Virus record (IMG/VR): IMGVR_UViG_3300024229_000994
Location: 1-58,877 of that record
Origin: a virus
Lineage: Duplodnaviria; Caudoviricetes
Length of the DNA stretch: 58,877 nt
Strand: one strand, 5' to 3'
Shown here: positions 4,744 through 51,567 of the stretch, in pieces
Layout of the letters: each line of letters starts with the position of its first letter
Position numbering within the stretch: position 1 is the stretch's first letter
Translations under genes and position numbers: made by a program
The notes under the pieces: generated by a model
Seen by the model: the letters and a program-made list of their open reading frames with translations, nothing else
Told to the model about the DNA's origin: nothing
The model's database searches: none

Positions 4744-5007
4744 TTATATACTGATGTACTGATCAATAAGTTTTTTAAGCTCGTCTTTTGTAATTATACC
4801 AACAGTAGTATTCAGCTCGACTCCATTTTTACATATAACGGTTGTTGGAATTGATCTAACATTAAATTTCTGTGTATTTAAACTATCATCATCTACGTCA
4901 ATGTTTTTAATTTCGAGATCTGAATAATTCGCCGTAACTTCGTCGAATATTTCCTTATAAGCTTTACAGGGACCGCACCATTTTGCAGAGAATTTATAAA
5001 TTTCCAT
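4744..5007 (-). CDS. thioredoxin
   Basis: WCGPC active site and RSIPT cis-Pro motif. Confidence 0.9.
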   Translation of the reverse strand: MEIYKFSAKWCGPCKAYKEIFDEVTANYSDLEIKNIDVDDDSLNTQKFNVRSIPTTVICKNGVELNTTVGIITKDELKKLIDQYISI

Positions 5008-27677: not shown

Positions 27678-28160
27678 ATGTTTGGACTTATTACAATGTT
27701 ACTTACAACGCTCGGTGCAACGGGTATGGGCTCGATGCTCAAGATTGTCGGTGGTCTCTTCGCAGGTATATCAGACGCTAAAGACTCTAAAGCTAAAAGA
27801 GAGCTTATTAGAGATATGCAAATGCAAAAAGCAGATCTCGAATTTCAAAAAGCTGTTTTTGGTGAAATGGATAAAGATACATCTGCTTTTACCCGTGGTA
27901 CTCGCAGGCTCATTGCTCTTATCGGGATGTGTAACTTTTTCGTCATCTCAGTCCTCTGCACCCTCTGGCCAGGAGTTGAGCTCGTTACCTTTACCCCTCC
28001 CGAAAACAAAGAGTCGTTCAAAATCCTCTGGGGATTGGTTTCTTTCCCCTCAGGAGCAGACATTACCACCTCAATTACGACAGGGCACATTGCTTTGGTC
28101 TCAATCGCCACTTTGGGAGCGATAATTGGTTTCTACTTTACACCAGGAGGTAAGAGATGA
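27678..28160 (+). CDS. multi-TM membrane protein (holin-like)
   Basis: Several hydrophobic segments; C-terminal IIGFYF. Confidence 0.65.
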   Translation: MFGLITMLLTTLGATGMGSMLKIVGGLFAGISDAKDSKAKRELIRDMQMQKADLEFQKAVFGEMDKDTSAFTRGTRRLIALIGMCNFFVISVLCTLWPGVELVTFTPPENKESFKILWGLVSFPSGADITTSITTGHIALVSIATLGAIIGFYFTPGGKR

Positions 28161-28441
28161 TAGGTGATATATTGACATTTATTGAAAAAGTTGGTTTACC
28201 TATTACAGCTGCATTAGCTGTTGGTTGGTTTTTATTTATAATTCTTAAGTTTATTTTAGCTCAAGTAAATAGTAGGATTTCAGGTTTAGGTAACTCTTTA
28301 TTATCTTTAGAAAATAAAGTTGATGTAATGAATAATGATATTGTGAAAATTGACGCTCTTTTTTCTAGTGCATTTAATGTTGAACCAAACCTTGATCGCA
28401 TTGCAGCGAGCGAAGGTAAAGAAGATTGTAGAGACGATTAA
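28157..28441 (+). CDS. TM plus coiled-coil membrane protein
   Basis: KVGLPI..TM..NNDIVKID; AGGAGG SD upstream. Confidence 0.75.
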   Translation: MIGDILTFIEKVGLPITAALAVGWFLFIILKFILAQVNSRISGLGNSLLSLENKVDVMNNDIVKIDALFSSAFNVEPNLDRIAASEGKEDCRDD

Positions 28442-28443
28442 TT

Positions 28444-28740
28444 ATGAGTGGTTACGAATTTTCACACTGGGCTGATATTATAACAAAATTTGGATTCCCT
28501 GTTATTGCTTTAATAGGTTTAGGTTCATTTATATGGTATATTTGGAAATGGGTAACTAAACAAGTTAATCCTTCTCTAGATAAAGCTGGAGCTTCTCTAG
28601 GTAAACTTAAAAAACAAATACAAGCTCTAGATAATGATATGATAAGACTGGATATGAAATTAAAAATATTAATTCAAGAACGTCATATTATAGATAAAAA
28701 TAGAAAAGAACTTATATCAGAGAAAGAAAAACCCTACTAA
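28444..28740 (+). CDS. TM plus coiled-coil membrane protein (paralogue of the previous gene)
   Basis: KFGFPV..TM..DNDMIRLD. Confidence 0.75.
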   Translation: MSGYEFSHWADIITKFGFPVIALIGLGSFIWYIWKWVTKQVNPSLDKAGASLGKLKKQIQALDNDMIRLDMKLKILIQERHIIDKNRKELISEKEKPY

Positions 28741-28784
28741 CCGCAGCTAGTAGGGGACTTAGATACTCCAAGAGACAATCTAAG
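28727..28784 (-). terminator. double hairpin/terminator between convergent genes
   Basis: ccctacta-N8-tagtaggg with an A tract, plus cttagat-N13-atctaag. Confidence 0.65.
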
Positions 28785-28798
28785 GGGTGAAAAAGTAA

Positions 28799-29005
28799 TT
28801 ATTTTTTAGCAGCAGGTTTTCTACCTCTCTTAATAGCTGGCTTCTTCTGCTTAGCTTTAAACTCTGCAAGTTCCGCCTCCGCTTTAGCAGCTAATTCCTT
28901 TGCTTCTTGAACTACTTTGTTAACTTCTTCTAGGTTGTTACGCGTAACTAAAGCACCGGTGATGATACCAGCTACAAAAACAACAATATATGTTAGTATT
29001 TCCAT
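28799..29005 (-). CDS. small membrane-anchored protein with a basic tail
   Basis: N-terminal TM, helical middle, KRGRKPAAKK. Confidence 0.75.
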   Translation of the reverse strand: MEILTYIVVFVAGIITGALVTRNNLEEVNKVVQEAKELAAKAEAELAEFKAKQKKPAIKRGRKPAAKK

Positions 29006-29055
29006 AAGACAATTATTTAATCAAAATATAACCATGTTCAACAATAAATATTAAT

Positions 29056-29295
29056 ATGGACAACACACAATTAAAAAAACTTTCTAAAATTGAATTAGAG
29101 GAATTAGGTAGAACAAAAGGTATTGAATTGGATAGAAGATCTAATAAAAAAACATTAATAGCTCAGATATCCAGTTTATTGAAAAGGAAACCCTCAACAA
29201 CATCTAAAGCAGCTAGTTCATCTAAACCTGTTAAGTCATCTGCAACCCCAGCATCGCGCGGATTTCGTGTAAGTCCTGGTAAATCTAACGCATAG
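29056..29295 (+). CDS. small helix-extension-helix (Rho-N/HeH-like) basic protein
   Basis: LKKLSKIELEELGRTKGIELDRRSNKKTLIAQI; TAAATA 5 nt upstream. Confidence 0.65.
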   Translation: MDNTQLKKLSKIELEELGRTKGIELDRRSNKKTLIAQISSLLKRKPSTTSKAASSSKPVKSSATPASRGFRVSPGKSNA

Positions 29296-29311
29296 TTTAT
29301 TAAATAATAAT

Positions 29312-29656
29312 ATGAGCAATCTTTCTTTTAATAACGAACTTCTTTTTGGTGGCGGGTCTGTAACTGACGGCGTTTCAGGTATAGCTGGTACTAATACATC
29401 TAAAATTCTTTATAACGCTAATGATAAGGGTACTGACACTACTGTCGTTACAACATCTGCTACATTAAATGGTACTGAGTATGAAATCGATATATTCGCT
29501 GGTTATAACGGTAGTACTTTAGCTATTATTGATAAAGATCGCTTTTCAACACAATTTGTTTTTGCATCAGGCGCATCAACTCAAACAGAAACAGCTTCTG
29601 GGTTTATTTCAGTAAGCCCTTCATTGCGTAGATTATATACGCTCGGTTACGTTTAA
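29312..29656 (+). CDS. hypothetical late/structural protein
   Basis: T/S/G-rich beta protein; TAAATA 5 nt upstream; terminator downstream. Confidence 0.7.
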   Translation: MSNLSFNNELLFGGGSVTDGVSGIAGTNTSKILYNANDKGTDTTVVTTSATLNGTEYEIDIFAGYNGSTLAIIDKDRFSTQFVFASGASTQTETASGFISVSPSLRRLYTLGYV

Positions 29657-29675
29657 AAAATAATTTATAAACATT

Positions 29676-29713
29676 AAAAAAGCCGTAATTAAATTTAATT
29701 ACGGCTTTTTTTT
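29676..29713. terminator. bidirectional intrinsic terminator
   Basis: Perfect palindrome aaaaaagccgtaattaaatttaattacggctttttt between convergent genes. Confidence 0.9.
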
Positions 29714-29762
29714 ACTTTTTAGATTTTGAATCGCTCGTCTTCCAGTAATACTCACTCACAAT

Positions 29763-30509
29763 CTAGACTTTAAGGGCCATATCCCAGATTACTAATTGTA
29801 GTCTCGGGCTAAACTTAAGTGTATGTTTTTTACATAACTCAGCTACCATTGCAGATTTAGCAGTGTGCTCTTCCCTACTACCACAGCAAGGCATTAACCA
29901 AACTCTTTCACGGCTAACTAAACCATTATCAATATATTTTTCAAATAGTTCCTTCTCATCATCTTCATTATTAATAACAAATTTAAAGCAAGAACCTAAT
30001 TCATTATGATACTTTAACACATCAGGTTTATACCTACGCTTTTCCGGATCGCCGTTATTACTCATCTTCGGAGATACAGTAAACGTCGCTCTATATATTG
30101 AGGACCATTCCGGTAAAGGCATTAAAGATCCATTTGTTTCGAAGTCAATACGCGGGCAAAAACTGAACCTTTCCATAAAGGATACTAACCATTCTATAAG
30201 TCGCTTCTGTTGCAGCAACGGTTCTCCGCCGGTAATCTTAAGAATTGCACCGTCCTTAAGATTCTTAACGAACCCGTTATTCTCATAGAAATTATTGAGC
30301 TCATCATATGTATATCGGTTCTTCACAGACCATGAAACAAACGAATCGCATCCATGCGGTGAATCTTCGGATGCAAAGCCTTGACATGTAAGGTTACACA
30401 TAGCAAGTCTCATAAAAACAGAAGGTTCACCAATGAATTTACCTTCACCTTCTACAGTATAAAAGACGTGATCATCGCTAAGAGATAGCGTTTTATTTAG
30501 ATTAGACAT
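29763..30509 (-). CDS. queE: 7-carboxy-7-deazaguanine synthase (radical SAM)
   Basis: FYTVEGEG, FMRLAMCNLTC...CDS, TGGEPLLQ, ETNG, SPRLQLVIW. Confidence 0.92.
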   Translation of the reverse strand: MSNLNKTLSLSDDHVFYTVEGEGKFIGEPSVFMRLAMCNLTCQGFASEDSPHGCDSFVSWSVKNRYTYDELNNFYENNGFVKNLKDGAILKITGGEPLLQQKRLIEWLVSFMERFSFCPRIDFETNGSLMPLPEWSSIYRATFTVSPKMSNNGDPEKRRYKPDVLKYHNELGSCFKFVINNEDDEKELFEKYIDNGLVSRERVWLMPCCGSREEHTAKSAMVAELCKKHTLKFSPRLQLVIWDMALKV

Positions 30510-30623
30510 ACATTAATTATATATATGTTCCGTCGCGTATCAAGCAGTAATATTATATTTATTCAAAAACATACAATTTTACACGTGTAATTTATCATGT
30601 ATATACGTATTAAATATATGTAT

Positions 30624-31397
30624 ATGTCAACAAAAACTAGTACTCGAAAGAGTACAAAAGCCGCGAAAAGACAACCCGTAAATAAATCAGAACTTGTTTT
30701 TGATAATAGAGTCGCGATGCCAGGTGATGACTGGGATCTAGATTTTAAAATCAAACAAGATTATGATCTAACTGAGAGGCAACAAGCCTTCTTTAATACA
30801 GCATTACAGCAGCAAACGCGAATGTGTATTGTAGATGGACCAGCTGGTACAGCTAAAACATATATAGCAGTATTAGCAGCATTAAAGTTGCTTCATAATA
30901 GACAGATAGATAATATTGTATATATTAGATCAATTGTGGAGAGTGCCTCCAGAAGTATGGGAGCTCTACCAGGTGAATTGGAAGATAAATTCGCACCATG
31001 GTCTATGCCTCTTATTGATAAGTTAGACGAGATACTAGTAGGTAATACTAGTAACAATCTAATGTCTAAGGGGTATATTAGATGTATACCAGTTAATTTT
31101 ACAAGAGGTCTAACATTTAAGAATGCTTGCGTTATTATTGACGAAGCTCAAAATATGACTAATTCTGAATTAACTACTATTTTAACTCGATTCGGTCAAG
31201 ATAGTAAATATCTAGTCGTCGGTGACACGTATCAAGCAGATATCGGTGAAAAGAGTGGGTTCGCTGGAATATATAAAGCTTTCGATGCGGATATCTGCAG
31301 TGAAAATAATATCAATACCTTTAAATTTGACGGTGACGATATTGTTCGAAGTGAAATCTTAAAGTTTATCGTCGAGAGACTGCACACCATTAAGTAG
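30624..31397 (+). CDS. phoH: PhoH-family ATPase
   Basis: GPAGTAKT, MGALPG, RGLTF, DEAQN, GDTYQAD; start re-placed 7 nt after TAAATA. Confidence 0.95.
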   Translation: MSTKTSTRKSTKAAKRQPVNKSELVFDNRVAMPGDDWDLDFKIKQDYDLTERQQAFFNTALQQQTRMCIVDGPAGTAKTYIAVLAALKLLHNRQIDNIVYIRSIVESASRSMGALPGELEDKFAPWSMPLIDKLDEILVGNTSNNLMSKGYIRCIPVNFTRGLTFKNACVIIDEAQNMTNSELTTILTRFGQDSKYLVVGDTYQADIGEKSGFAGIYKAFDADICSENNINTFKFDGDDIVRSEILKFIVERLHTIK

Positions 31398-31631
31398 CTC
31401 TTTCATCGCTTGCTCAAGCCCGACCGGTTGAATTTCCTGTACCGGTTCGGGCTTTTGCTCATTCTTAATTTCAGTTGGTGGAGTTACTGCATGTTGCATT
31501 TTTGCAAATACATTATTTTCTAACTCGACTGATTTTGGATCTCTCTCTCGTGTTGTAGGTATACCACCGGTAGCTCCATTAGAGTGAATAGGTGCTTTGG
31601 ATATGCCTTGGTATATATCACCTAAATTCAT
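31359..31631 (-). CDS. hypothetical protein
   Basis: 90 aa, 2 nt downstream of queD. Confidence 0.6.
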   Translation of the reverse strand: MNLGDIYQGISKAPIHSNGATGGIPTTRERDPKSVELENNVFAKMQHAVTPPTEIKNEQKPEPVQEIQPVGLEQAMKELLNGVQSLDDKL

Positions 31632-31633
31632 TA

Positions 31634-32245
31634 TTAATTACCCCATGATGTACCGCCAAATAAATTACCCATACCAGTAGTAACTTTACTATTAAGTGGT
31701 GGAATTTTTGGTTTATCTTGAGGAATTTCAGTAACTGTATTTTCTACAACTGCAGTTACATTTTCTTTCTCTGTATTATCTTGAATCTGTAGCGTAATAT
31801 CACCGAGACTCTCTTCATAAATTGCACTATTCCCTTCATGCTCCCAGACCTCTACTTTGATAACTCTTACACGGTTATTTGTTTGTTCGGTTACAAATTT
31901 ATTTGTTGTTTCATAAACCCATTCAGCAGTTCTTTCAATACCGACGCCTTTCTCAGCAATGCGAAGATCAATCATACCCTTATCAGACATCAACTTAAAT
32001 GTATCCAATTCAGGATCATCAGCAGCTACTACAGTTGTATGATCGAATTGCTTTTCTAAAAGTTTTTTAATTTCTCTACAACCACCGAAATCATAAATCC
32101 AATTCTTATCATCTAATTGATCTGCTGTAAACCATAACTTACATTGCAATCTATAACCATGAATTAACTTGCAATGACTATCTGCTCTCCATTGACGAAA
32201 AGCTGTACTACCCATAGGAATAATCTTCGTTGAAATATATCTCAT
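31634..32245 (-). CDS. queD: 6-carboxytetrahydropterin synthase
   Basis: FRQWRADSHCKLIHGY, DFGG, FDHT, EVWEH. Confidence 0.9.
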   Translation of the reverse strand: MRYISTKIIPMGSTAFRQWRADSHCKLIHGYRLQCKLWFTADQLDDKNWIYDFGGCREIKKLLEKQFDHTTVVAADDPELDTFKLMSDKGMIDLRIAEKGVGIERTAEWVYETTNKFVTEQTNNRVRVIKVEVWEHEGNSAIYEESLGDITLQIQDNTEKENVTAVVENTVTEIPQDKPKIPPLNSKVTTGMGNLFGGTSWGN

Positions 32246-32297
32246 ATTATTATTATGAAGTATATATCATGATAATCAACTTTTTTTATGATAAGAG

Positions 32298-32369
32298 TTG
32301 ATTTATATTTTTAACCTATTAAAATACCTTTAGGTGGAAGGGAGGAGGAGATCATTCAGTTATTTTTTT
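32298..32369 (+). promoter_or_regulatory. orphan promoter followed by a GGA-rich tract (candidate small RNA)
   Basis: TTGATT-N16-TAAAAT, then AGGTGGAAGGGAGGAGGAGATC...T7; no annotated + gene follows. Confidence 0.4.
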
Positions 32370-33835
32370 ACCTCTGATGTAGGTGAAGGGTTAGCTTTTG
32401 CTTCAGCTTCTTTAATTTCAGCTTCAGTTGCTGCAACACCTTTTTTGTAGTTAATTAAATATTGCTTTGTTGTTGGTAAATCTTGCAATATTTGAAATTT
32501 CATGTAACCTGACTTTTCATCGGGTCTCATGAGAATATGCTTACCGTCAGTTAAAGGCTTTACATCTGTTTTATTAATAGGGTATTGACCGTCACTATAT
32601 TTAACACCCATTAATTGTTTATTTTCACTGCTCAATGTATATAACTTTTCTTGACCGTTCCATTGAAAATTTACACCTTCTGTAGTTATAGCATTAATAG
32701 GTTGGTTTTCATTATCATATGCATATATAATACCGGTATTACTTTCCGCGGATTTAAATTCATTATCTTTTGCTTGTAACAAGTATGTGAGGTATTTTAT
32801 GTCGCGATCCTTTAGTATATTAGCAACATCTGGTGTTAACGGTTTTAGCGTATACTGAATACCTTTTTCACCGAAACTAGTTCTACCTGTCAATTCGAAT
32901 AATGCGTTATCGATTGTCAGTCTTGAATCTGGAGTTACTACCGGGTCTTCTGCTGGTTCTGGATCTTCTGCTGGTTCTTCAAATTCAATCCTATCACCGG
33001 GGTATATATCCTTGAGGCCCTGTACAATTTTTTTAGCTTTGTCTTCACCGAGAGATTTAATCCAATCACCTTTATATGATTTTTGAAAGTTAAATTCCGG
33101 TTCTTCAGCATCTTCTACGCTCGATCCGGATAATCCCTTCTTAGGGTCATGACCTTTAAAGGTAAACGGTATATCAGGGTATGTTTCTTTAACAGCTTTC
33201 AGGAAACTAGGTACACCTTTTGATATCCATTGCACGCGCCTATCAATTACCTTCTTGCCTGTATCCGGGTCAGTTAATTTCATTTCGGTATCTAATTTTA
33301 AAACATCTTTAAGTATATCCCAAACACGTACAGCTTTTGATTTACCGTCCTTATTACCAGCCATTTGCTCCATATTCTTGAAGCTACCCTTTTCATTTCT
33401 ATCTAACGAGGCTTGAGCTTCATTTATTTTTTTTAAAAAATGTGCTGGTAGTACTGCCTCATTTGCTTCTGAAGCTTCCGGAGCCTCTTCAGAAGCAGCA
33501 GATGCATCTTGACCATATGCATTTATTTTTTTTATAATATCATCACCGAGTTTAATTTTGTTAAATCCACCTTTACCAAAATATCCCATTTTATTAGTAC
33601 TTTTATCAAGTTGTTTATCTAATATTTTTTGTAGAGCATCTCCGATATCCCATTTGCCTCTTGCAACTTCAGCGCCTTTCTTAATAAAGTTAGTGGATTT
33701 TTGAGCTGCACTTGCAACTTTATTTAAGATCCCCCCTTTCTTAACAGGTTTATTTGCATTTGCAGCTAATTGACCTGTATCGGTAGTGTTAGATTCAGGC
33801 GTTGCTTCCTGTATTAATTTTAAAAAATTACTCAT
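32360..33835 (-). CDS. hypothetical late protein (putative head-internal)
   Basis: 491 aa, MSNFLKLIQEA, acidic linkers; TAAATA upstream. Confidence 0.75.
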   Translation of the reverse strand: MSNFLKLIQEATPESNTTDTGQLAANANKPVKKGGILNKVASAAQKSTNFIKKGAEVARGKWDIGDALQKILDKQLDKSTNKMGYFGKGGFNKIKLGDDIIKKINAYGQDASAASEEAPEASEANEAVLPAHFLKKINEAQASLDRNEKGSFKNMEQMAGNKDGKSKAVRVWDILKDVLKLDTEMKLTDPDTGKKVIDRRVQWISKGVPSFLKAVKETYPDIPFTFKGHDPKKGLSGSSVEDAEEPEFNFQKSYKGDWIKSLGEDKAKKIVQGLKDIYPGDRIEFEEPAEDPEPAEDPVVTPDSRLTIDNALFELTGRTSFGEKGIQYTLKPLTPDVANILKDRDIKYLTYLLQAKDNEFKSAESNTGIIYAYDNENQPINAITTEGVNFQWNGQEKLYTLSSENKQLMGVKYSDGQYPINKTDVKPLTDGKHILMRPDEKSGYMKFQILQDLPTTKQYLINYKKGVAATEAEIKEAEAKANPSPTSEVKK

Positions 33836-33884
33836 TATTAATATTATTTATTGATTTTATATTTATATACTATATAATTAGTGT

Positions 33885-34928
33885 ATGTCAGATAAAAGTA
33901 AAAATTATGAATGGTTAGGTGAAGATGATGAACTTACTGGAGAAAAGGACGTTATTGCAAAAGAAATTATGGGTGAAGAGTTTAGTAAAGGCTACTTTCC
34001 TCCTATTAGAGTATATGATGATAATGTCAATGCAGATAAAGAATACATTTCTTCATTACCTGACCTTCAGAACGGCCCTTCTAGTTTAATTCAAGGTGCA
34101 CCTGTACCTATTCAACAAGTAGGTATCCATAACTTTAAACTACCGTTAACTTATAAGAAGAGAGATGGTAAGACTATTGAGTTAGAGACGAGCGTTACTG
34201 GCAGCGTTAGTCTCGAAGCTCATAAGAAGGGCATTAATATGTCTCGTATCATGAGAAGCTTCTATGACCATAAAGATGAAGTATTTAGTATGGGTAAGAT
34301 TAGAGATGTTCTCGAGACATATAGGAATAATCTTAAGAGCTTCGACTCTCGTATTATGCTTAAGATTTCATATCCTATTAAGCAACAGAGTCTACGTAGT
34401 GGTTTAGAAGGCTTCCAGTATTATGACGTAGTATTTGAAGGCGATCTAACTAAAGAAGGTGAATTTAAAAAGTATATTCACTTTGATTTCGTTTATTCAT
34501 CGGCATGCCCTTGTAGTTTTGAATTAAGTGAGCATGCTGAAAAGTATCGTAATAGAGCTACAGTGCCTCATAGTCAACGAAGTGTTGCTCGAGTTAGTGT
34601 GAAGTTTGATGATATGCTCTGGGTCGAGGATCTCCAGGAATTATGCTTAGCTGCTCTTCAAACCGAAACTCAAGTAATGGTCAAGAGAGAAGACGAGCAG
34701 GCGTTTGCTGAAAAGAACGGTGCTTATCTTAAGTTCGTAGAGGATGCAGTTAGACTACTCTTCGAAAAGCTTAATAATGAATCTCGTATTAAAGACTTTA
34801 AGATTGTAGCTTCGCATAACGAAAGCTTGCATAGTCATAATGCTGTATCAGTTATTGTAAAGGGTGTAGAAGGTGGCTTCTCAGCTGGAGTAGCTAGAGA
34901 TGTATTCGAATCAACTGGATTACGGTAG
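33885..34928 (+). CDS. folE2: GTP cyclohydrolase I type IB
   Basis: LPDLQN, QVGI, KGINMSR, SACPCS, HSQRS, VKREDE, FVEDAVR, ESLHSH. Confidence 0.95.
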   Translation: MSDKSKNYEWLGEDDELTGEKDVIAKEIMGEEFSKGYFPPIRVYDDNVNADKEYISSLPDLQNGPSSLIQGAPVPIQQVGIHNFKLPLTYKKRDGKTIELETSVTGSVSLEAHKKGINMSRIMRSFYDHKDEVFSMGKIRDVLETYRNNLKSFDSRIMLKISYPIKQQSLRSGLEGFQYYDVVFEGDLTKEGEFKKYIHFDFVYSSACPCSFELSEHAEKYRNRATVPHSQRSVARVSVKFDDMLWVEDLQELCLAALQTETQVMVKREDEQAFAEKNGAYLKFVEDAVRLLFEKLNNESRIKDFKIVASHNESLHSHNAVSVIVKGVEGGFSAGVARDVFESTGLR

Positions 34929-34950
34929 TTTAAATATATAACAATATTAC

Positions 34951-34981
34951 AAAACTGTTAGTGAAAGCTAACAGTTTTTTT
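34951..34981. terminator. intrinsic terminator (bidirectional)
   Basis: aaaactgttag-tgaaag-ctaacagttttttt. Confidence 0.85.
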
Positions 34982-34985
34982 ATGT

Positions 34986-35426
34986 TTAATCTAAATTACC
35001 TTCAGCACTTACATCAATTAAACCGCCGAGTTGTTCGATGAAATCCTTACCTACAAGAATTTTATACTCGTTTTCTTCTCTATCACCGATTGAGAATTTA
35101 GTAGCAGGGTAAACTTCGTCGCCGATTTCAATATCAAATTCTACTACCGGTCTCTCTTCAATATTACCAGAACCAATATTGATATCAATAAATTCAACAA
35201 CACGCTTTTTTATCGTCTTACCGTCTACTGTTTCAAAAGTAACATGAGATTTACCTTCATAGCTGTCATCGAGACCACTGTACTGTAAATTTATACCATG
35301 TAAGACATTATAAGCCCCATTGCCGCTATCAACTTTAGCTTCAATGGGACCTAATTCTTTAAATGTTATTGTTTCAATCAACCCTAGTGGTTGAGTCGAT
35401 TCAAAAAATTGTTTAAAAGTAATCAC
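34986..35426 (-). CDS. retropepsin-like aspartic protease (RimK-associated 'ATP-dependent Zn protease' family)
   Basis: LGLIETI, IEAKVDSGN, EERPVV, FSIGDR, ILVGKDF; GTG start 5 nt after TAAATA. Confidence 0.8.
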   Translation of the reverse strand: MITFKQFFESTQPLGLIETITFKELGPIEAKVDSGNGAYNVLHGINLQYSGLDDSYEGKSHVTFETVDGKTIKKRVVEFIDINIGSGNIEERPVVEFDIEIGDEVYPATKFSIGDREENEYKILVGKDFIEQLGGLIDVSAEGNLD

Positions 35427-35434
35427 ATTATTAT

Positions 35435-35629
35435 TTATGCTTTACCTTCATTCTTTATCTCCTGAATCTGCTTTCTAATGTCTTTACATAGCTTCGAAAT
35501 CTCTAGCAATGACTTACGTGCACGTGTTGCAGCAGCCTTATTACCTTTTTCGAGAAAAAGCTCTACATCAGTAGAGAAGTGTTCGAAGTATACCTTAATA
35601 TCACTATTATTGTCTTTTATATTGCTCAT
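35435..35629 (-). CDS. histone H1-like protein, Hc1 family
   Basis: EKGNKAAATRARKSLLEISK matches the Hc1/HctA core (EKGNKAAAQR). Confidence 0.8.
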   Translation of the reverse strand: MSNIKDNNSDIKVYFEHFSTDVELFLEKGNKAAATRARKSLLEISKLCKDIRKQIQEIKNEGKA

Positions 35630-35700
35630 ATGCAAATATTTAATTATATAAAAAATGATTTCAAGTTTATTTTTAAGAAATATAAGCTATAATATAAGAT

Positions 35701-36579
35701 ATGGATAGTAAACCTACCAATGAGTTTATTGAATTTAGAAAAAATATCTTTGATACATTCGAAATCGATGCATCGGACATTATGTCTGCATTGCAGATTA
35801 TTGATGTAAACGTTACAGAAATATGTACCCGTAAATGTGTTTTTTGCCCGAGAGTAGATAAAAAAATATACCCTAATAGAAGCTTACATATGTCAATTGA
35901 TACATGTGAAAAGCTCGCTAATGATTTAGCTGAGTTTGAATATAAAAATCAAGTTGTGTTTGCTGGGTTTAGTGAACCTCTAGCCAATAAAAAGATATTT
36001 GAGATTGTAAAAACATTTAGAGACAAGCTACAATATAATAATAATATTTCTATTACAACAAATGGTGATCTATTAAAAGATGATACTCTTAAGAGGCTAT
36101 TTGATAACGGGCTTAATCTATTAAAGATGAGTCTATATGATGGACCGGAGCAAGAAGAGAGATTCTTAGAGCAATTTAATAGATGTAATATTAAACCAGA
36201 TCAATATGTTATTAAGAGATTCTGGTACGGCCCTGAAGAAGAATATGGTATGTCGGGTATTAGTAACCGAGTAGGTATGATGAAATTAAATGATAGGGAA
36301 GTACCTATTAGACCGTGTTATATGTCTTTTAACTCATCATTTATTGATTGGAATGGTGATGTGCTATTATGTACCCATAATTGGCGAAAGGATGTTAAGT
36401 TTGGTAATATACATAAAGCTAGCCTTAAAGATATATGGTTATCAGAAGCAGCTAAAACAATGAGGCAACATCATATAATAAACGGTCGAAAAGGAAAATC
36501 ACCGTGCACTGACTGTGAAGTACATGGTCAAGTATATGGTGAAGATTCATTTAATTTATTTAAAAAATATTATGCATAA
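35701..36579 (+). CDS. radical SAM/SPASM protein
   Basis: CTRKCVFC, FSEPL, TNG, C-terminal CY..IDWNGDVLLC..CTDC. Confidence 0.9.
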   Translation: MDSKPTNEFIEFRKNIFDTFEIDASDIMSALQIIDVNVTEICTRKCVFCPRVDKKIYPNRSLHMSIDTCEKLANDLAEFEYKNQVVFAGFSEPLANKKIFEIVKTFRDKLQYNNNISITTNGDLLKDDTLKRLFDNGLNLLKMSLYDGPEQEERFLEQFNRCNIKPDQYVIKRFWYGPEEEYGMSGISNRVGMMKLNDREVPIRPCYMSFNSSFIDWNGDVLLCTHNWRKDVKFGNIHKASLKDIWLSEAAKTMRQHHIINGRKGKSPCTDCEVHGQVYGEDSFNLFKKYYA

Positions 36580-37234
36580 AAAAATTAAAATATTTGTAGG
36601 TTTAGACGAGCCCCATAAAATTGCATATGATAAGTGTGTGAAGAGCATACATGATAAGAATGTAAAATATGATATCGATATACATCCTATTAATTATAAT
36701 ACTGTAAAAGAATATAGTAGAAAAAAAGACCCATATGAATCTACACAGTTCGCATTTGCGAGATTCTTCGTACCATATCAAAGTAGATATGAAGGTGTAA
36801 GTATATTTCTAGATGGTGACTTTTTATTCCTTGAATCGATTGATAAGCTTTTAGATCTATACGATCCGAAATATGCTATCATGTGTTGTAAGCACGAATA
36901 TAACCCAACTAACTTACAGAAGATGGGTGGAAAACCACAGACTGCCTGGCCTCGTAAAAATTGGAGTAGCTTAATGATTTTTAATAATGAGCACACAAAA
37001 AATAAAACGTTAAACCCACTCACTATTAACAATCAAACCGGAGCCTTTCTTCACAGGTTTAAATGGTTAGAGGACGAAGAGATTGGTTCACTACCTATAC
37101 AATGGAACTGGTTAGTCGATTGGTATAAAGAACCTAAGGATGGTAAGCCATTAGCTCTGCACTATACCGAAGGCGGTCCATGGCTTAAAGAATATAATCA
37201 ATGCGATTATGCGGATATATGGCTAAATTACTAA
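36572..37234 (+). CDS. GT8-like glycosyltransferase
   Basis: IFVGLD, STQFAFARFFVP, FLDGDF, PRKNWSS, WNWL, LHYTEGGPW; start re-placed at 36572. Confidence 0.8.
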   Translation: MHKKIKIFVGLDEPHKIAYDKCVKSIHDKNVKYDIDIHPINYNTVKEYSRKKDPYESTQFAFARFFVPYQSRYEGVSIFLDGDFLFLESIDKLLDLYDPKYAIMCCKHEYNPTNLQKMGGKPQTAWPRKNWSSLMIFNNEHTKNKTLNPLTINNQTGAFLHRFKWLEDEEIGSLPIQWNWLVDWYKEPKDGKPLALHYTEGGPWLKEYNQCDYADIWLNY

Positions 37235-38208
37235 TAAAAAACTCTACTATTTTTTAGTTCTCTACCAATAATATCAATTGCTTGACTTTTGTTTCTTGTT
37301 ATAAATTTATCATAATATGAACCATTATATTTTTCCATACCATAATTGAAAAGTTCATCTCTATATGTATTATATACAGACATAAAGTCAATATAACTAG
37401 CAGGTGAATTTTGTATATACATACAATCTGTAAGTAGACTCTCTAAAGAGCCTTTTTCTTTACATTTAAACCCAGCTTCTGTCTTTTGGAATCCTAGCTT
37501 CTCACTCGAGAATCCACCGTCGTATAAATGCGTAGTATCCATTCCAAATTTATTGCAAAAATGAGATTTATAATCATTACTACCGCTTATTAAAATTAGA
37601 TCTTTGTAGGGGGTCTCTTTGATCAGAAAATCACAGAAAATATCCAACATCTTTATATCCTCATCTTTATCTATTCTAAATGTGGGTAGTGTTATAAAGT
37701 ATTTCTCTTTTGTAAAATTCTTTATCAGCTTAGCGTCGACGCTGATATCAGCATTTAATTTTATACTATCTTTATTCTTACGCTTTTTTGTATTATTAAT
37801 ATAATGCAGTTCATTATCATTATAATTATCTAGATAATAAAACTTAACAGTGTTATCTAATAAGAAATTACTACCATCGCTTATTCCATTGATATACATA
37901 TCATTGATATTGTCAACCTTTGTAACTCTTTCTATAAACAATTTTTTAATATATGTATCATCGCGATGCATCGGATCTACCTTTCTACCCTTAACTGCTT
38001 TTAATCTCATATCTCTTATAAGCTTATATGAATTATTATTCTCTATATTATTGAAAGTAAACATCTTATTTTCAAAGACATTAGTAAGATCTCCTTTGAT
38101 ATAAAAGGTTTTATTATGATCCTTATAATATTTAGATAACATTATCAACCCGATCATAAAATCAGTATATGTTACTCTCTCTCTTATAGCCTGCGCGAAG
38201 TATATCAT
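37231..38208 (-). CDS. hypothetical protein, possibly a divergent fucosyltransferase-like GT
   Basis: LILISGSNDYK motif shared with 40196..41086. Confidence 0.55.
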   Translation of the reverse strand: MIYFAQAIRERVTYTDFMIGLIMLSKYYKDHNKTFYIKGDLTNVFENKMFTFNNIENNNSYKLIRDMRLKAVKGRKVDPMHRDDTYIKKLFIERVTKVDNINDMYINGISDGSNFLLDNTVKFYYLDNYNDNELHYINNTKKRKNKDSIKLNADISVDAKLIKNFTKEKYFITLPTFRIDKDEDIKMLDIFCDFLIKETPYKDLILISGSNDYKSHFCNKFGMDTTHLYDGGFSSEKLGFQKTEAGFKCKEKGSLESLLTDCMYIQNSPASYIDFMSVYNTYRDELFNYGMEKYNGSYYDKFITRNKSQAIDIIGRELKNSRVFY

Positions 38209-39062
38209 AGTTTATAGTATTTTGTATATTGTTTACCGACTTTCTCGCCATGTATATTACATCTATTACATACCGGTAAGTCTCGTTTACCTTCTTTCAG
38301 ATGTGATCTGTAATTATTTAAGAAAGTTGATTCCCATATTTCTTTTAAGGTATGAGTATTAATATTTAACTTATTCTTCGATAGTTTAAACCAATCCTCG
38401 CAGCATAAAATCTGATCACCATTCCAGTCGATAAAAAGTTTATAAAAAGGCAAATAGCATTTATTTTTTATATTATCTTTCAGTAAATCAGTATTCATTT
38501 TAACTGCTCCAGCTCTATTTGTAAATCCTGAAAAATTATCTGAATGATAATAACTCTTCCTTAACGTAAATGTATCAGAATTGTAACTCTCGAACATCTT
38601 ATTGAATTTTTCTAGCTGTTCATCACCGTCATATAAACTAACAACAATATGATTAATACCAGCTTCATATATTTTCTCGATGATGCCTTCCTTTATCTTA
38701 TCACCATTAGTATTAATTTCATGTACTCTTAGTTGTGGATTTTCGTCACTAACAATCTTTACGAGTTTATAAAAATCTTTTGTTAGTAAGGGCTCTCCAT
38801 TACCGGACCAGCCTATTCTATTCGTGTAGTTATTGAGCTTGAGCTCAGAGCTCAGCTTTCGGATCGTCTCTTCAGTTATATGTAAATTTTGATTCGGATA
38901 CACCTTAGGGTCACTTCTAGGGCAAAAATGGCAGGTACGGTTACATAGCTCAGTCGGATTAATAGTAATACTCTGCAGAGCTTTCATCGGCGTCATCTCG
39001 ATATCCGTAGCTATTTGCCTTTTTCTCAGATCGATTATATCTTGCTTATTATCTGCTATCAC
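38205..39062 (-). CDS. radical SAM/SPASM protein (paralogue of 35701)
   Basis: CNRTCHFC, GEPL, TNG, TNRAG, CY..IDWNGDQILCC..CNRC. Confidence 0.9.
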   Translation of the reverse strand: MIADNKQDIIDLRKRQIATDIEMTPMKALQSITINPTELCNRTCHFCPRSDPKVYPNQNLHITEETIRKLSSELKLNNYTNRIGWSGNGEPLLTKDFYKLVKIVSDENPQLRVHEINTNGDKIKEGIIEKIYEAGINHIVVSLYDGDEQLEKFNKMFESYNSDTFTLRKSYYHSDNFSGFTNRAGAVKMNTDLLKDNIKNKCYLPFYKLFIDWNGDQILCCEDWFKLSKNKLNINTHTLKEIWESTFLNNYRSHLKEGKRDLPVCNRCNIHGEKVGKQYTKYYKL

Positions 39063-41086: not shown

Positions 41087-41672
41087 TTATATCACCTCGC
41101 CGTTTCATTTTAGAATACCATAATCTTTCCCAGGTATAAGGGTGCATATTAGAGTCATCTCTGTTATGCCGTGGGTCCCAGTACCATCCTGTTTTGAAGA
41201 AATCAAATCCCGTGGTGTATATTTTTTTACGTGGAAATAATTTACGTATAAAATAGAATGTTTTAAAGCCGAGAGAAAAATTAATTTTATCTATTTGATT
41301 AAAAGGGGACATAACCTCACAGAACATATTTTTAAATCCTTCTATATCAGCCTCTGTATTTAGATATAATATATTATGTTTATAATCAGTAAATTCTTTA
41401 TCAATATACTCTCTACTTTCTAAAAAACTTTCCTGGTAATTTAAAGGTACGTTTAATATAACTTTTGTTTTCTTTAACCTTTCTGTACATAGCTTCCAGT
41501 ATATTGTCGAAATTATATCCGTTTTACTACCGACATACTCTTCAAAGCCATCTGTTACATATCTACCTAACCGTACAACTGTATCAAACTCATCTATTAA
41601 TGCGCCATTTTTTTTATCTAGAACAGCTTCACCGTTACCGACGATTATAATATCATGCTCCGAGTGCATCAA
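41076..41672 (-). CDS. GT29 (sialyltransferase-like) protein
   Basis: IIIVGNG..LDKKNGALIDEFDTVVRL..VGSKT sialylmotif-L-like; SLG..GFDFF. Confidence 0.8.
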   Translation of the reverse strand: MMHSEHDIIIVGNGEAVLDKKNGALIDEFDTVVRLGRYVTDGFEEYVGSKTDIISTIYWKLCTERLKKTKVILNVPLNYQESFLESREYIDKEFTDYKHNILYLNTEADIEGFKNMFCEVMSPFNQIDKINFSLGFKTFYFIRKLFPRKKIYTTGFDFFKTGWYWDPRHNRDDSNMHPYTWERLWYSKMKRRGDIIEI

Positions 41673-51171: not shown

Positions 51172-51567
51172 GTGAGTATTATAGATCAATACGTAAAAGA
51201 AATTGAGAAGGATCTGCATGTCGATGAGTTTAATATCAAAGATGTATCGATGAAGACGCCTGGTCGTAAGCATTTTTGGGTCAGTAAGCTAATACAACAT
51301 AAAAAAAATCTTATTAATGTTAAAGCGCAGCGATTTCAATTAAAGAAGGAAATAACTAAACAGATTATCGAAAAATCGCCCGTTAAGGTAACGACTCCTA
51401 TTGCAGAGAAGACTGCATATCAACATGAACAAATGGTCGAGCTGCAAGCCAGGATAGACGAGCAAGAGCTTATAATTGAACTATTAGAAAAAACCGAAAA
51501 AACGTTCAGTTCACTTAGTTTTGATATTAAGAATATTGTCGAGATTATGAAAATGGAAACATTATGA
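51172..51567 (+). CDS. uvsY: recombination mediator UvsY-like
   Basis: EIEKDLHVDE..FDIKNIVEIMK; directly before uvsW. Confidence 0.75.
   Translation: MSIIDQYVKEIEKDLHVDEFNIKDVSMKTPGRKHFWVSKLIQHKKNLINVKAQRFQLKKEITKQIIEKSPVKVTTPIAEKTAYQHEQMVELQARIDEQELIIELLEKTEKTFSSLSFDIKNIVEIMKMETL

Follow-up and report, generated by a model that had tools for sequence, protein, structure and literature searches.

The window analysed here is the whole of IMG/VR virus record IMGVR_UViG_3300024229_000994, 58,877 bp of DNA from an uncultured marine phage (Caudoviricetes), and the subject of this report is a 114-nt gap at 32246-32359 that separates two minus-strand open reading frames (ORFs), 32360..33835 and 31634..32245. 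The neighbourhood of the gap is one of 7-deazaguanine synthesis genes (FolE2, QueD and QueE). On the plus strand, opposite in direction to both flanking ORFs, the gap carries a promoter sequence, here called P(+), which is followed by a short palindrome and a purine tract with no ORF behind them. Together these make up a real, conserved and clade-specific non-coding unit that belongs to no Rfam family.

Relatives were gathered by using the 491-aa product of 32360..33835 and QueD as queries in viral contigs, and by searching for the DNA pattern of the unit in viral, metagenome and species-genome collections, with chance matches filtered out. At least 37 distinct versions of the unit were obtained, representing 18 clusters at 85% identity, and all counts out of 37 given below refer to these 37. 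Every one of them lies directly upstream of queD, and there is no true copy among the at least 120 pattern matches listed from species genomes. The features of the locus are as follows.

32298..32303, plus strand: -35 hexamer of P(+), TTGATT; in relatives TTGATT, TTGACT or TGGATT, with column identities of 1.0, 0.92, 1.0, 1.0, 0.73 and 1.0
32304..32319, plus strand: spacer of P(+), 16 nt; 16 nt in 32/37 relatives and 17 nt in 5/37
32320..32325, plus strand: -10 hexamer of P(+), TAAAAT; TAAAAT, TATAAT or TAGAAT in 37/37, with position 3 varying (0.57) and the other five invariant
32326..32335, either strand: 10-bp palindrome ACCTTTAGGT over the predicted start site; ATCTTTAGAT in other lineages
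32332, plus strand: predicted transcription start, an A, 6 nt after the -10 hexamer, placed by analogy with the TATAAT-N6-ATG spacing of leaderless genes; A in 36/37
32336..32353, plus strand: purine tract GGAAGGGAGGAGGAGATC (CT-rich on the gene-sense strand); AGGGA in 37/37
32363..32369, plus strand: run of seven T residues at +32 to +38, over the stop codon of the upstream gene
32274..32279, minus strand: -35 hexamer of the queD promoter, TTGATT, an inverted repeat of the P(+) -35, seen in the sequence and in relatives
32252..32257, minus strand: -10 hexamer of the queD promoter, CATAAT, 6 nt before the ATG at 32245 and hence leaderless, seen in the sequence and in relatives
31634..32245, minus strand: queD, 6-pyruvoyl-tetrahydropterin synthase family, 203 aa (PF01242, 1.6e-18; phrog_2389, 2.2e-35)
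32360..33835, minus strand: hypervariable modular gene, 491 aa here, whose 3' end would be the antisense target
33885..34928, plus strand: FolE2, a neighbour
Neighbouring, plus strand: PhoH-like gene
29763..30509, minus strand: QueE, a neighbour

Conservation of the P(+) unit

Both hexamers, the 16/17-nt spacer and the AGGGA-centred purine tract are present in 37/37 versions. Beyond the -10 hexamer the window reads ACCTTT and then AGGTGGAAGGGAGGAGGAGATCATTCAGTTATTTTTTT from 32332, and the relatives read AyCTTT followed by the A of the predicted start. Variation within the promoter is confined to positions 2 and 5 of the -35 hexamer and position 3 of the -10 hexamer, the latter being the least constrained position of that hexamer. 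The sequence of the spacer is by comparison free, with 27 distinct spacers among the 37 relatives and a mean column identity of 0.60. A geometry that is fixed and a spacer whose sequence is free are what marks a functional promoter, and P(+) is therefore very probably a genuine promoter of the sigma-70 type.

The same hexamers and spacing precede 11 leaderless ORFs in this genome. The early promoters of FolE2 (at 33851) and QueE (at 30543) share with P(+) a -35 of TTGAww, a 16/17-nt spacer, a -10 of TAwAAT and 6 nt to the start, but transcription from these would begin at the ATG itself, whereas P(+) would start at AGG or AGA and has no ORF behind it. An initial annotation of this DNA, made from the letters alone, had described TTGATT-16-TAAAAT as having the geometry of the genome's other promoters, with a Shine-Dalgarno (SD)-like tract at 32332 and no usable ATG after it, and this description is right; the first downstream ATG, at 32377, is immediately followed by TAG.

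The window is probably a fragment of a larger genome, as a related record of 185 kb is estimated to be 88% complete, and from that relative the genomes of these phages are probably of about 200 kb. The unit is nevertheless present in single copy: the CT-rich tract occurs once in the window, and five related records, the 185-kb one among them, each have a single copy of the -10 hexamer plus palindrome core. Its position is also fixed, always between the hypervariable gene and queD, within a gene order (ZnProt-FolE2-variable gene-unit-queD-orf90-PhoH-QueE) that is kept in relatives. In 37/37 the tract is preceded, at 4-54 nt, by the end of a co-oriented upstream ORF, so that P(+) always points into the 3' end of that ORF. 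This upstream gene encodes from 82 to 758 aa across relatives, which mostly have the N-terminus alone in common, and the 491-aa protein of the window gave no Pfam, PHROG or usable protein Atlas match. The gene between FolE2 and queD is a mosaic among its homologues (L005-L316), with N-terminal types MSNFLK... and MTDKELFEK..., shuffled C-terminal parts and tails rich in Lys, Pro and Ala.

On the other side of the unit, a leaderless queD promoter is conserved in relatives as TTGAwT-16/17-yATAAT-N6-ATG. It stands back to back with P(+), and the gap between the two -35 hexamers ranges from about 6 to 26 nt among relatives, as read by eye from the alignment.

The palindrome, the tract and the junction with queD

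Among 33 distinct rows one pair of the palindrome switches on both sides, T:A being found in 19 and C:G in 14, and is never unpaired; the resulting covariation score was reached by none of 500 shuffles. This retention of symmetry through two-sided change is a point in favour of a DNA-level operator, in which a protein of the phage or of the host would bind the palindrome and tract and regulate either or both of the divergent promoters, the plus-strand transcript being incidental. The palindrome lies exactly on the predicted start, so that only half of it would be in the RNA, the conservation of AGGGA in all versions suits recognition by a protein, and no RNA structure was found on either strand. 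We consider an operator not very likely, however, as no candidate regulator was identified, 10 bp is short for a dimeric operator, and the palindrome does not keep a constant distance from the queD -35, the spread among relatives being some 20 nt (again by eye), which is awkward for a fixed activator geometry; an operator would also leave the enrichment of T-runs described below unexplained.

Between the palindrome and the tract lie 0-8 variable bases. The tract has the consensus GAAGGGAnGAG, often then TAATCATC, its variants include a AGGGACGAG type, and the longest purine run is 8-16 nt across the 37 relatives. In the window the plus strand downstream of the promoter reads AGGTGGAAGGGAGGAGGAGATC and then the T7 run, antisense to the 491-aa gene, and the predicted start sits 28 nt beyond the stop codon of that gene at 32360-32362. 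A promoter followed by G clusters (GG, GG, GGG, GG, GG) and then by an AT-rich run, in a single-copy intergenic unit, is reminiscent of promoter-dependent origins and polypurine primers, and the G-clustered non-template strand could form a persistent RNA:DNA hybrid (an R-loop) that primes replication or blocks oncoming polymerases. This is very improbable. The G clusters are not conserved, many variants having GGG and GG only, and no iterons were seen. The 185-kb relative has the unit at 68.5 kb, within a long minus-strand arm, away from its extremes of cumulative GC skew and its strand switches (about 31 and 90 kb); in the window the GC-skew minimum is at 50-52 kb, beside a 290-nt gap between divergent gene blocks. 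That gap (51274-51563), which coincides with the cumulative GC-skew minimum of the window and has a matching switch at about 90 kb in the 185-kb relative, is a better origin candidate than the P(+) unit.

The T7 run is part of a wider tendency, as five or more T residues occur in a row at +25 to +41 in 23/37 variants (10/18 clusters by hand tally), against 4.6-6.3% of random 17-nt windows and 12-15% of sequences antisense to gene 3' ends. The short RNAs predicted from P(+) fold weakly (-0.7 to -7.9 kcal/mol, mean z of -0.6), and longer folds are no better than those of shuffles on either the plus strand (z = -1.08) or the minus strand (z = +0.23). A search with the Rfam models, including preQ1 riboswitches and the folE motif, gave no match at the gathering score over the window, and a permissive search of 32200-32480 yielded no more than three, all at the level of chance (E 1.4-5.8) and well short of the gathering score; the idea of a preQ1 or folE riboswitch was dropped for want of an Rfam match.

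There is no intrinsic terminator (a G+C-rich stem of at least 5 pairs plus a T-run) on either strand at 32246-32359, and the same scan found 12 elsewhere in 28000-38000. Convergent junctions carry terminators with 12-16-bp stems, unlike the co-directional junction between the 491-aa gene and queD. Long-stem bidirectional terminators stand at the convergent gene junctions 29676-29711 and 34951-34978, indicating that canonical terminators are used elsewhere by the phage.

The lack of a canonical terminator between two co-directional genes could be accounted for if the conserved element were one of the minus-strand RNA, in which the C/U-rich tract, a mini-hairpin and AUUUUAA would serve the upstream mRNA as a signal for Rho loading, for its 3' end or for processing, the plus-strand hexamers being secondary. 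The tract is C-rich and nearly G-free on that strand in an AT-rich genome, and it begins 4-54 nt after the stop codon in every version. Such an element is nonetheless doubtful: the 16/17-nt spacing, the free spacer and the confinement of hexamer variation to particular positions mark a promoter and not a by-product, the minus-strand fold is indistinguishable from shuffles and its hairpin has only 3-5 pairs, and the gap is bridged by contigs in two RNA runs, which, if these derive from RNA, argues against efficient termination.

Shine-Dalgarno likeness and coding potential

The initial annotation took the tract for the strongest SD-like sequence noticed, and proposed that its RNA might occupy the anti-SD tails of 30S subunits, or CsrA, and so suppress leadered host translation while leaderless phage mRNAs escape. 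The first part of this is correct. With a consensus motif standing in for the anti-SD tail (that of the host may differ), no other site in the genome binds as strongly as the window tract, whose duplex energy of -21.0 kcal/mol compares with a mean of -3.5 and a standard deviation of 2.6 over the genome; all 37 variants bind at -10.0 to -21.0 kcal/mol, within the top 2.2% of genome windows. The runner-up, AAGAAAGGGGGGATC at 33745 (-) with -20.9 kcal/mol, is coding sequence about 90 nt into the hypervariable gene.

The fit to the anti-SD is compositional, because permuted tails bind about as well. Among 300 permuted pyrimidine 12-mers of the same composition, the median fraction that bound as well as the anti-SD was 0.37, and for the window tract it was 0.097; the SD likeness thus largely reflects the pairing of purine tracts with pyrimidine tracts in general. 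Nor is complementarity to the CCUCC core conserved, with GGAGG present in 16/37 and GGAGGAGGAG, the sequence singled out in the initial annotation, in 2/37. Conservation of the tract, which had been offered as a check on the decoy proposal, therefore holds for the AGGGA-centred purine tract and fails for GGAGGAGGAG itself.

Nor are SD sequences enriched before the genes of the phage: among 76 ORFs the upstream duplex energies average -0.4 and -1.4 against a background of -2.1, and 4/61 genes lacking a close -10-like motif reach -8 or better. Because the phage genes show no SD enrichment, the host itself may make little use of SD sequences. A Bacteroidota host as a simple cause of the missing SDs was considered and dropped, since Cellulophaga phage phiSM has TAnnTTTG promoters and long A-rich leaders, unlike this phage. 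Canonical SDs stand before two ORFs only, as exceptions in an SD-free genome: CAGGAGGTAAGAG-ATG before 28157 (28127-28156, plus strand) and GAGGTGATATAA-TTG before 41086 (41087-41116, minus strand).

The phage is largely leaderless, as exemplified by 33851-33887 (+), 30543-30507 (-), 19496-19460 (-) and 454-418 (-). The minus-strand genes starting at 5007, 8580, 14855 and 17642 share another recurring motif, TATATAAATA or TAAATAA, about 5-6 nt ahead of their ATG, which implies leaderless starts there too; we take it to resemble a T4-type late promoter (TATAAATA).

The CsrA proposal fares no better than that of a ribosome decoy. The number of GGA motifs in +1 to +30 is one in 15, two in 10, three in 10 and four in 2 of the 37 variants, and there are no hairpins, so that the predicted RNA does not have the makings of a CsrA/RsmA sponge, a single GGA being too few. 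More generally, a trans-acting purine-rich small RNA, be it an anti-SD or CsrA decoy or a milder SD-like 5' stabiliser such as those of cryIIIA (STAB-SD) and phage SP82, is improbable. It would account for the binding energies given above and for the location of the tract at the 5' end, most variants lacking a start codon at SD distance, and a largely leaderless, SD-free phage would be immune to its action. RNA-stabilising SD-like sequences without a start codon are documented, one account describing the cryIIIA STAB-SD and the SP82 early RNA stabiliser as polypurine SD-like sequences that lie near the 5' end and lack a start codon at working distance (PMC7509114), as is the case for the P(+) tract. 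As described there, however, these stabilisers act in Bacillus on downstream coding mRNA through true anti-SD pairing; nothing coding lies downstream of P(+), the GGAGG core is present in fewer than half of its versions, the pairing is non-specific and the phage otherwise avoids SDs. There is also no high-depth contig at the site in the RNA runs described below, although such libraries would lose short RNAs, and neither a phage anti-SD decoy nor this unit appears in the literature searched, at the level of listings. The specific proposal that an abundant purine RNA of about 38 nt binds the 16S 3' tail, or other pyrimidine-rich host RNA, and blocks leadered host translation while sparing the leaderless phage must on these grounds be considered very improbable. 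Were it true, it would constitute a phage RNA decoy aimed at ribosome specificity, which is unlikely on present evidence.

That the unit encodes a small protein is scarcely credible. The initial annotation offered as an alternative a 38-aa peptide with a GTG start (32334-32450), and this ORF is present in the window, but the GTG is found in only 15/37 variants, the frames range from 5 to at least 22 codons, and their tails are unrelated. A micro-ORF following the SD-like tract could also be imagined, as GGAGGAG-N6-ATG occurs in two close variants (L250 and L252); of the 36 variants matched by the core pattern, however, only nine have a start codon within 16 nt of the tract, at inconsistent positions, and no micro-ORF after the tract is conserved. 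The 0-8-nt variable insertions fall within the region that would be translated, and neither Pfam nor PHROG gave a match.

Among the chance matches to the pattern, the Bacilli rpsU leader (TATAAT-ATCTTTAG-...AAGAAGGGAGGG) likewise has a -10 followed by a purine-rich SD leader, but there the SD is followed by ATG at 5 nt; the organisms are unrelated, there is no homology to the phage unit, and the likeness shows only that the latter resembles a promoter plus ribosome-binding site without a gene. In contigs of Bacilli metagenome-assembled genomes (L334, L336, L367, L376, L388, L397 and similar) the arrangement is TATAAT-ATCTTTAGCCAAGAAGGGAGGG-N5-ATG before a gene beginning MTKVVVRNG..., presumably bS21, and amounts to an ordinary promoter with a strong SD.

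A possible cis-antisense or insulating transcript

The interpretation that we tentatively prefer, while regarding it as a possibility and not an established function, is that P(+) yields a short transcript acting in cis as an antisense or insulating RNA. Between two co-directional units one would expect a terminator at the place that P(+) occupies, and the proposal of the initial annotation that fits best is its alternative of an RNA antisense to 32360..33835, there being a conserved promoter of the sigma-70 type with no ORF behind it. Transcription would start at about 32332, in the middle of the palindrome, in the direction opposite to that of the leaderless queD promoter. The RNA would be non-coding, its first 25 nt or so consisting of the purine tract, and would meet a T-run at +30 to +41 in most lineages; at a predicted 35-42 nt, it would be complementary to the 3' untranslated region (UTR), the stop codon and the last codons of the hypervariable gene. 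The existence of this RNA, its length and its action in cis are all deduced from the DNA sequence. The action might be through convergent transcription, with a roadblock to or collision of polymerases, or through pairing with read-through mRNA. In either event, transcription from the hypervariable gene into the queD promoter would be limited or its product processed, and queD would be kept on its own leaderless start. Insulation of this kind would be sensible for queD, because read-through from upstream would be expected both to occlude a leaderless promoter and to yield an mRNA in which the AUG is internal.

The closest parallel is the OOP RNA of phage lambda (pO-oop-tO), which one account describes as a short RNA with its own promoter, terminated at tO and with a 52-base overlap with the 3' end of cII (PMC5869508). 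Like OOP, the P(+) RNA would have its own intergenic promoter, convergent with the upstream gene and overlapping the 3' end of its mRNA. The two differ in that OOP ends at a hairpin terminator and the phage unit has a T-run that is enriched among its versions but lacks a hairpin; the predicted RNA is about half as long as OOP, its overlap is mostly with the 3' UTR, and there is no sequence similarity. Moreover, the sequence of the P(+) RNA is conserved across lineages, which antisense pairing alone would not need. When the window and the 185-kb relative were scanned for trans targets by duplex energy, the self-complement alone stood out (-58 and -55 kcal/mol, the next hits reaching -32 and -25), and there was no target shared by the two.

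Several observations weigh against a cis-antisense or insulating role. A pure antisense or roadblock function leaves the conservation of the tract sequence, with AGGGA in all versions, unexplained. A similar module of a promoter plus AGGTATAGAAA is sense-oriented upstream of queD in L026 and L028, a poor fit with an antisense role; in these more distant relatives (L026:3896-3960 and L028:3906-3965, both plus strand) TTGATT-16-TATAAT precedes AGGTATAGAAA(A)GAA and forms a tandem pair with the proximal queD promoter, and this may be the same module inverted. No hairpin before the T-run was found in folds of the predicted 28-44-nt RNAs, and because of this, and because the folds are weak, termination at the T-run is unproven.

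Contigs from RNA sequencing are a further point. The region is present as contigs in six RNA runs (coded X15-X20), of which four were compared, and such contigs show neither strand nor start. A contig of X16 (depth 2.9) bridges 32233-32486, and in a relative a contig of X17 (depth 14.1) bridges queD, the gap and the upstream gene; since these two span the whole gap, either read-through RNA or contaminating DNA exists. The contig cover has a hole over 32233/32259-32340 in three of the four runs, with one contig starting from 32341, although holes prove nothing and depth cannot rank genes. In two studies the contigs over queD reach no further than 32232 and 32228, which hints weakly at transcription beginning close to the ATG at 32245.

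Finally, the site does not stand out within the window alone. Shuffled sequence gives 4.4 +/- 2.2 matches to the strict promoter pattern TTGAHH-16/17-TANAAT and the window gives 17, of which 11 lie 6-10 nt ahead of an ORF start; the six orphans (7862+, 32298+, 42259+, 57599+, 51053- and 22689-) compare with the approximately 4.4 expected, which leaves the 32298 site within chance. A loose consensus scan found 65 promoter-like sites in 10 kb, against 45 expected. It is the retention of promoter geometry and AGGGA-centred tract in all of the relatives that lifts the site above chance.

Because the preferred cis-acting transcript explains neither the conservation of the tract nor the module of L026 and L028, we have kept the operator, the minus-strand element, the trans-acting RNA and the R-loop primer as rivals to it. 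If the RNA is made, it would represent a clade-wide, single-copy non-coding unit in uncultured marine phages and a concrete example of how neighbouring transcription units may be separated without terminators, and it would offer a way into how the 7-deazaguanine DNA-modification genes (FolE2, QueD and QueE), and the fast-evolving gene that lies between them, are regulated.

The phage itself has no cultured relative and no host could be assigned: megablast and a tblastn search with the 491-aa gene against 50,697 phage records gave no match, and all matches of QueD, QueE and the helicase among phage records are below 60% identity. No tRNAs were found, and neither QueC nor a transglycosylase is encoded among the ORFs scanned, which were a subset of those in the window. 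Two radical-SAM/SPASM proteins are encoded near the deazaguanine genes, at 35701-36579 (+) and 38205-39062 (-).

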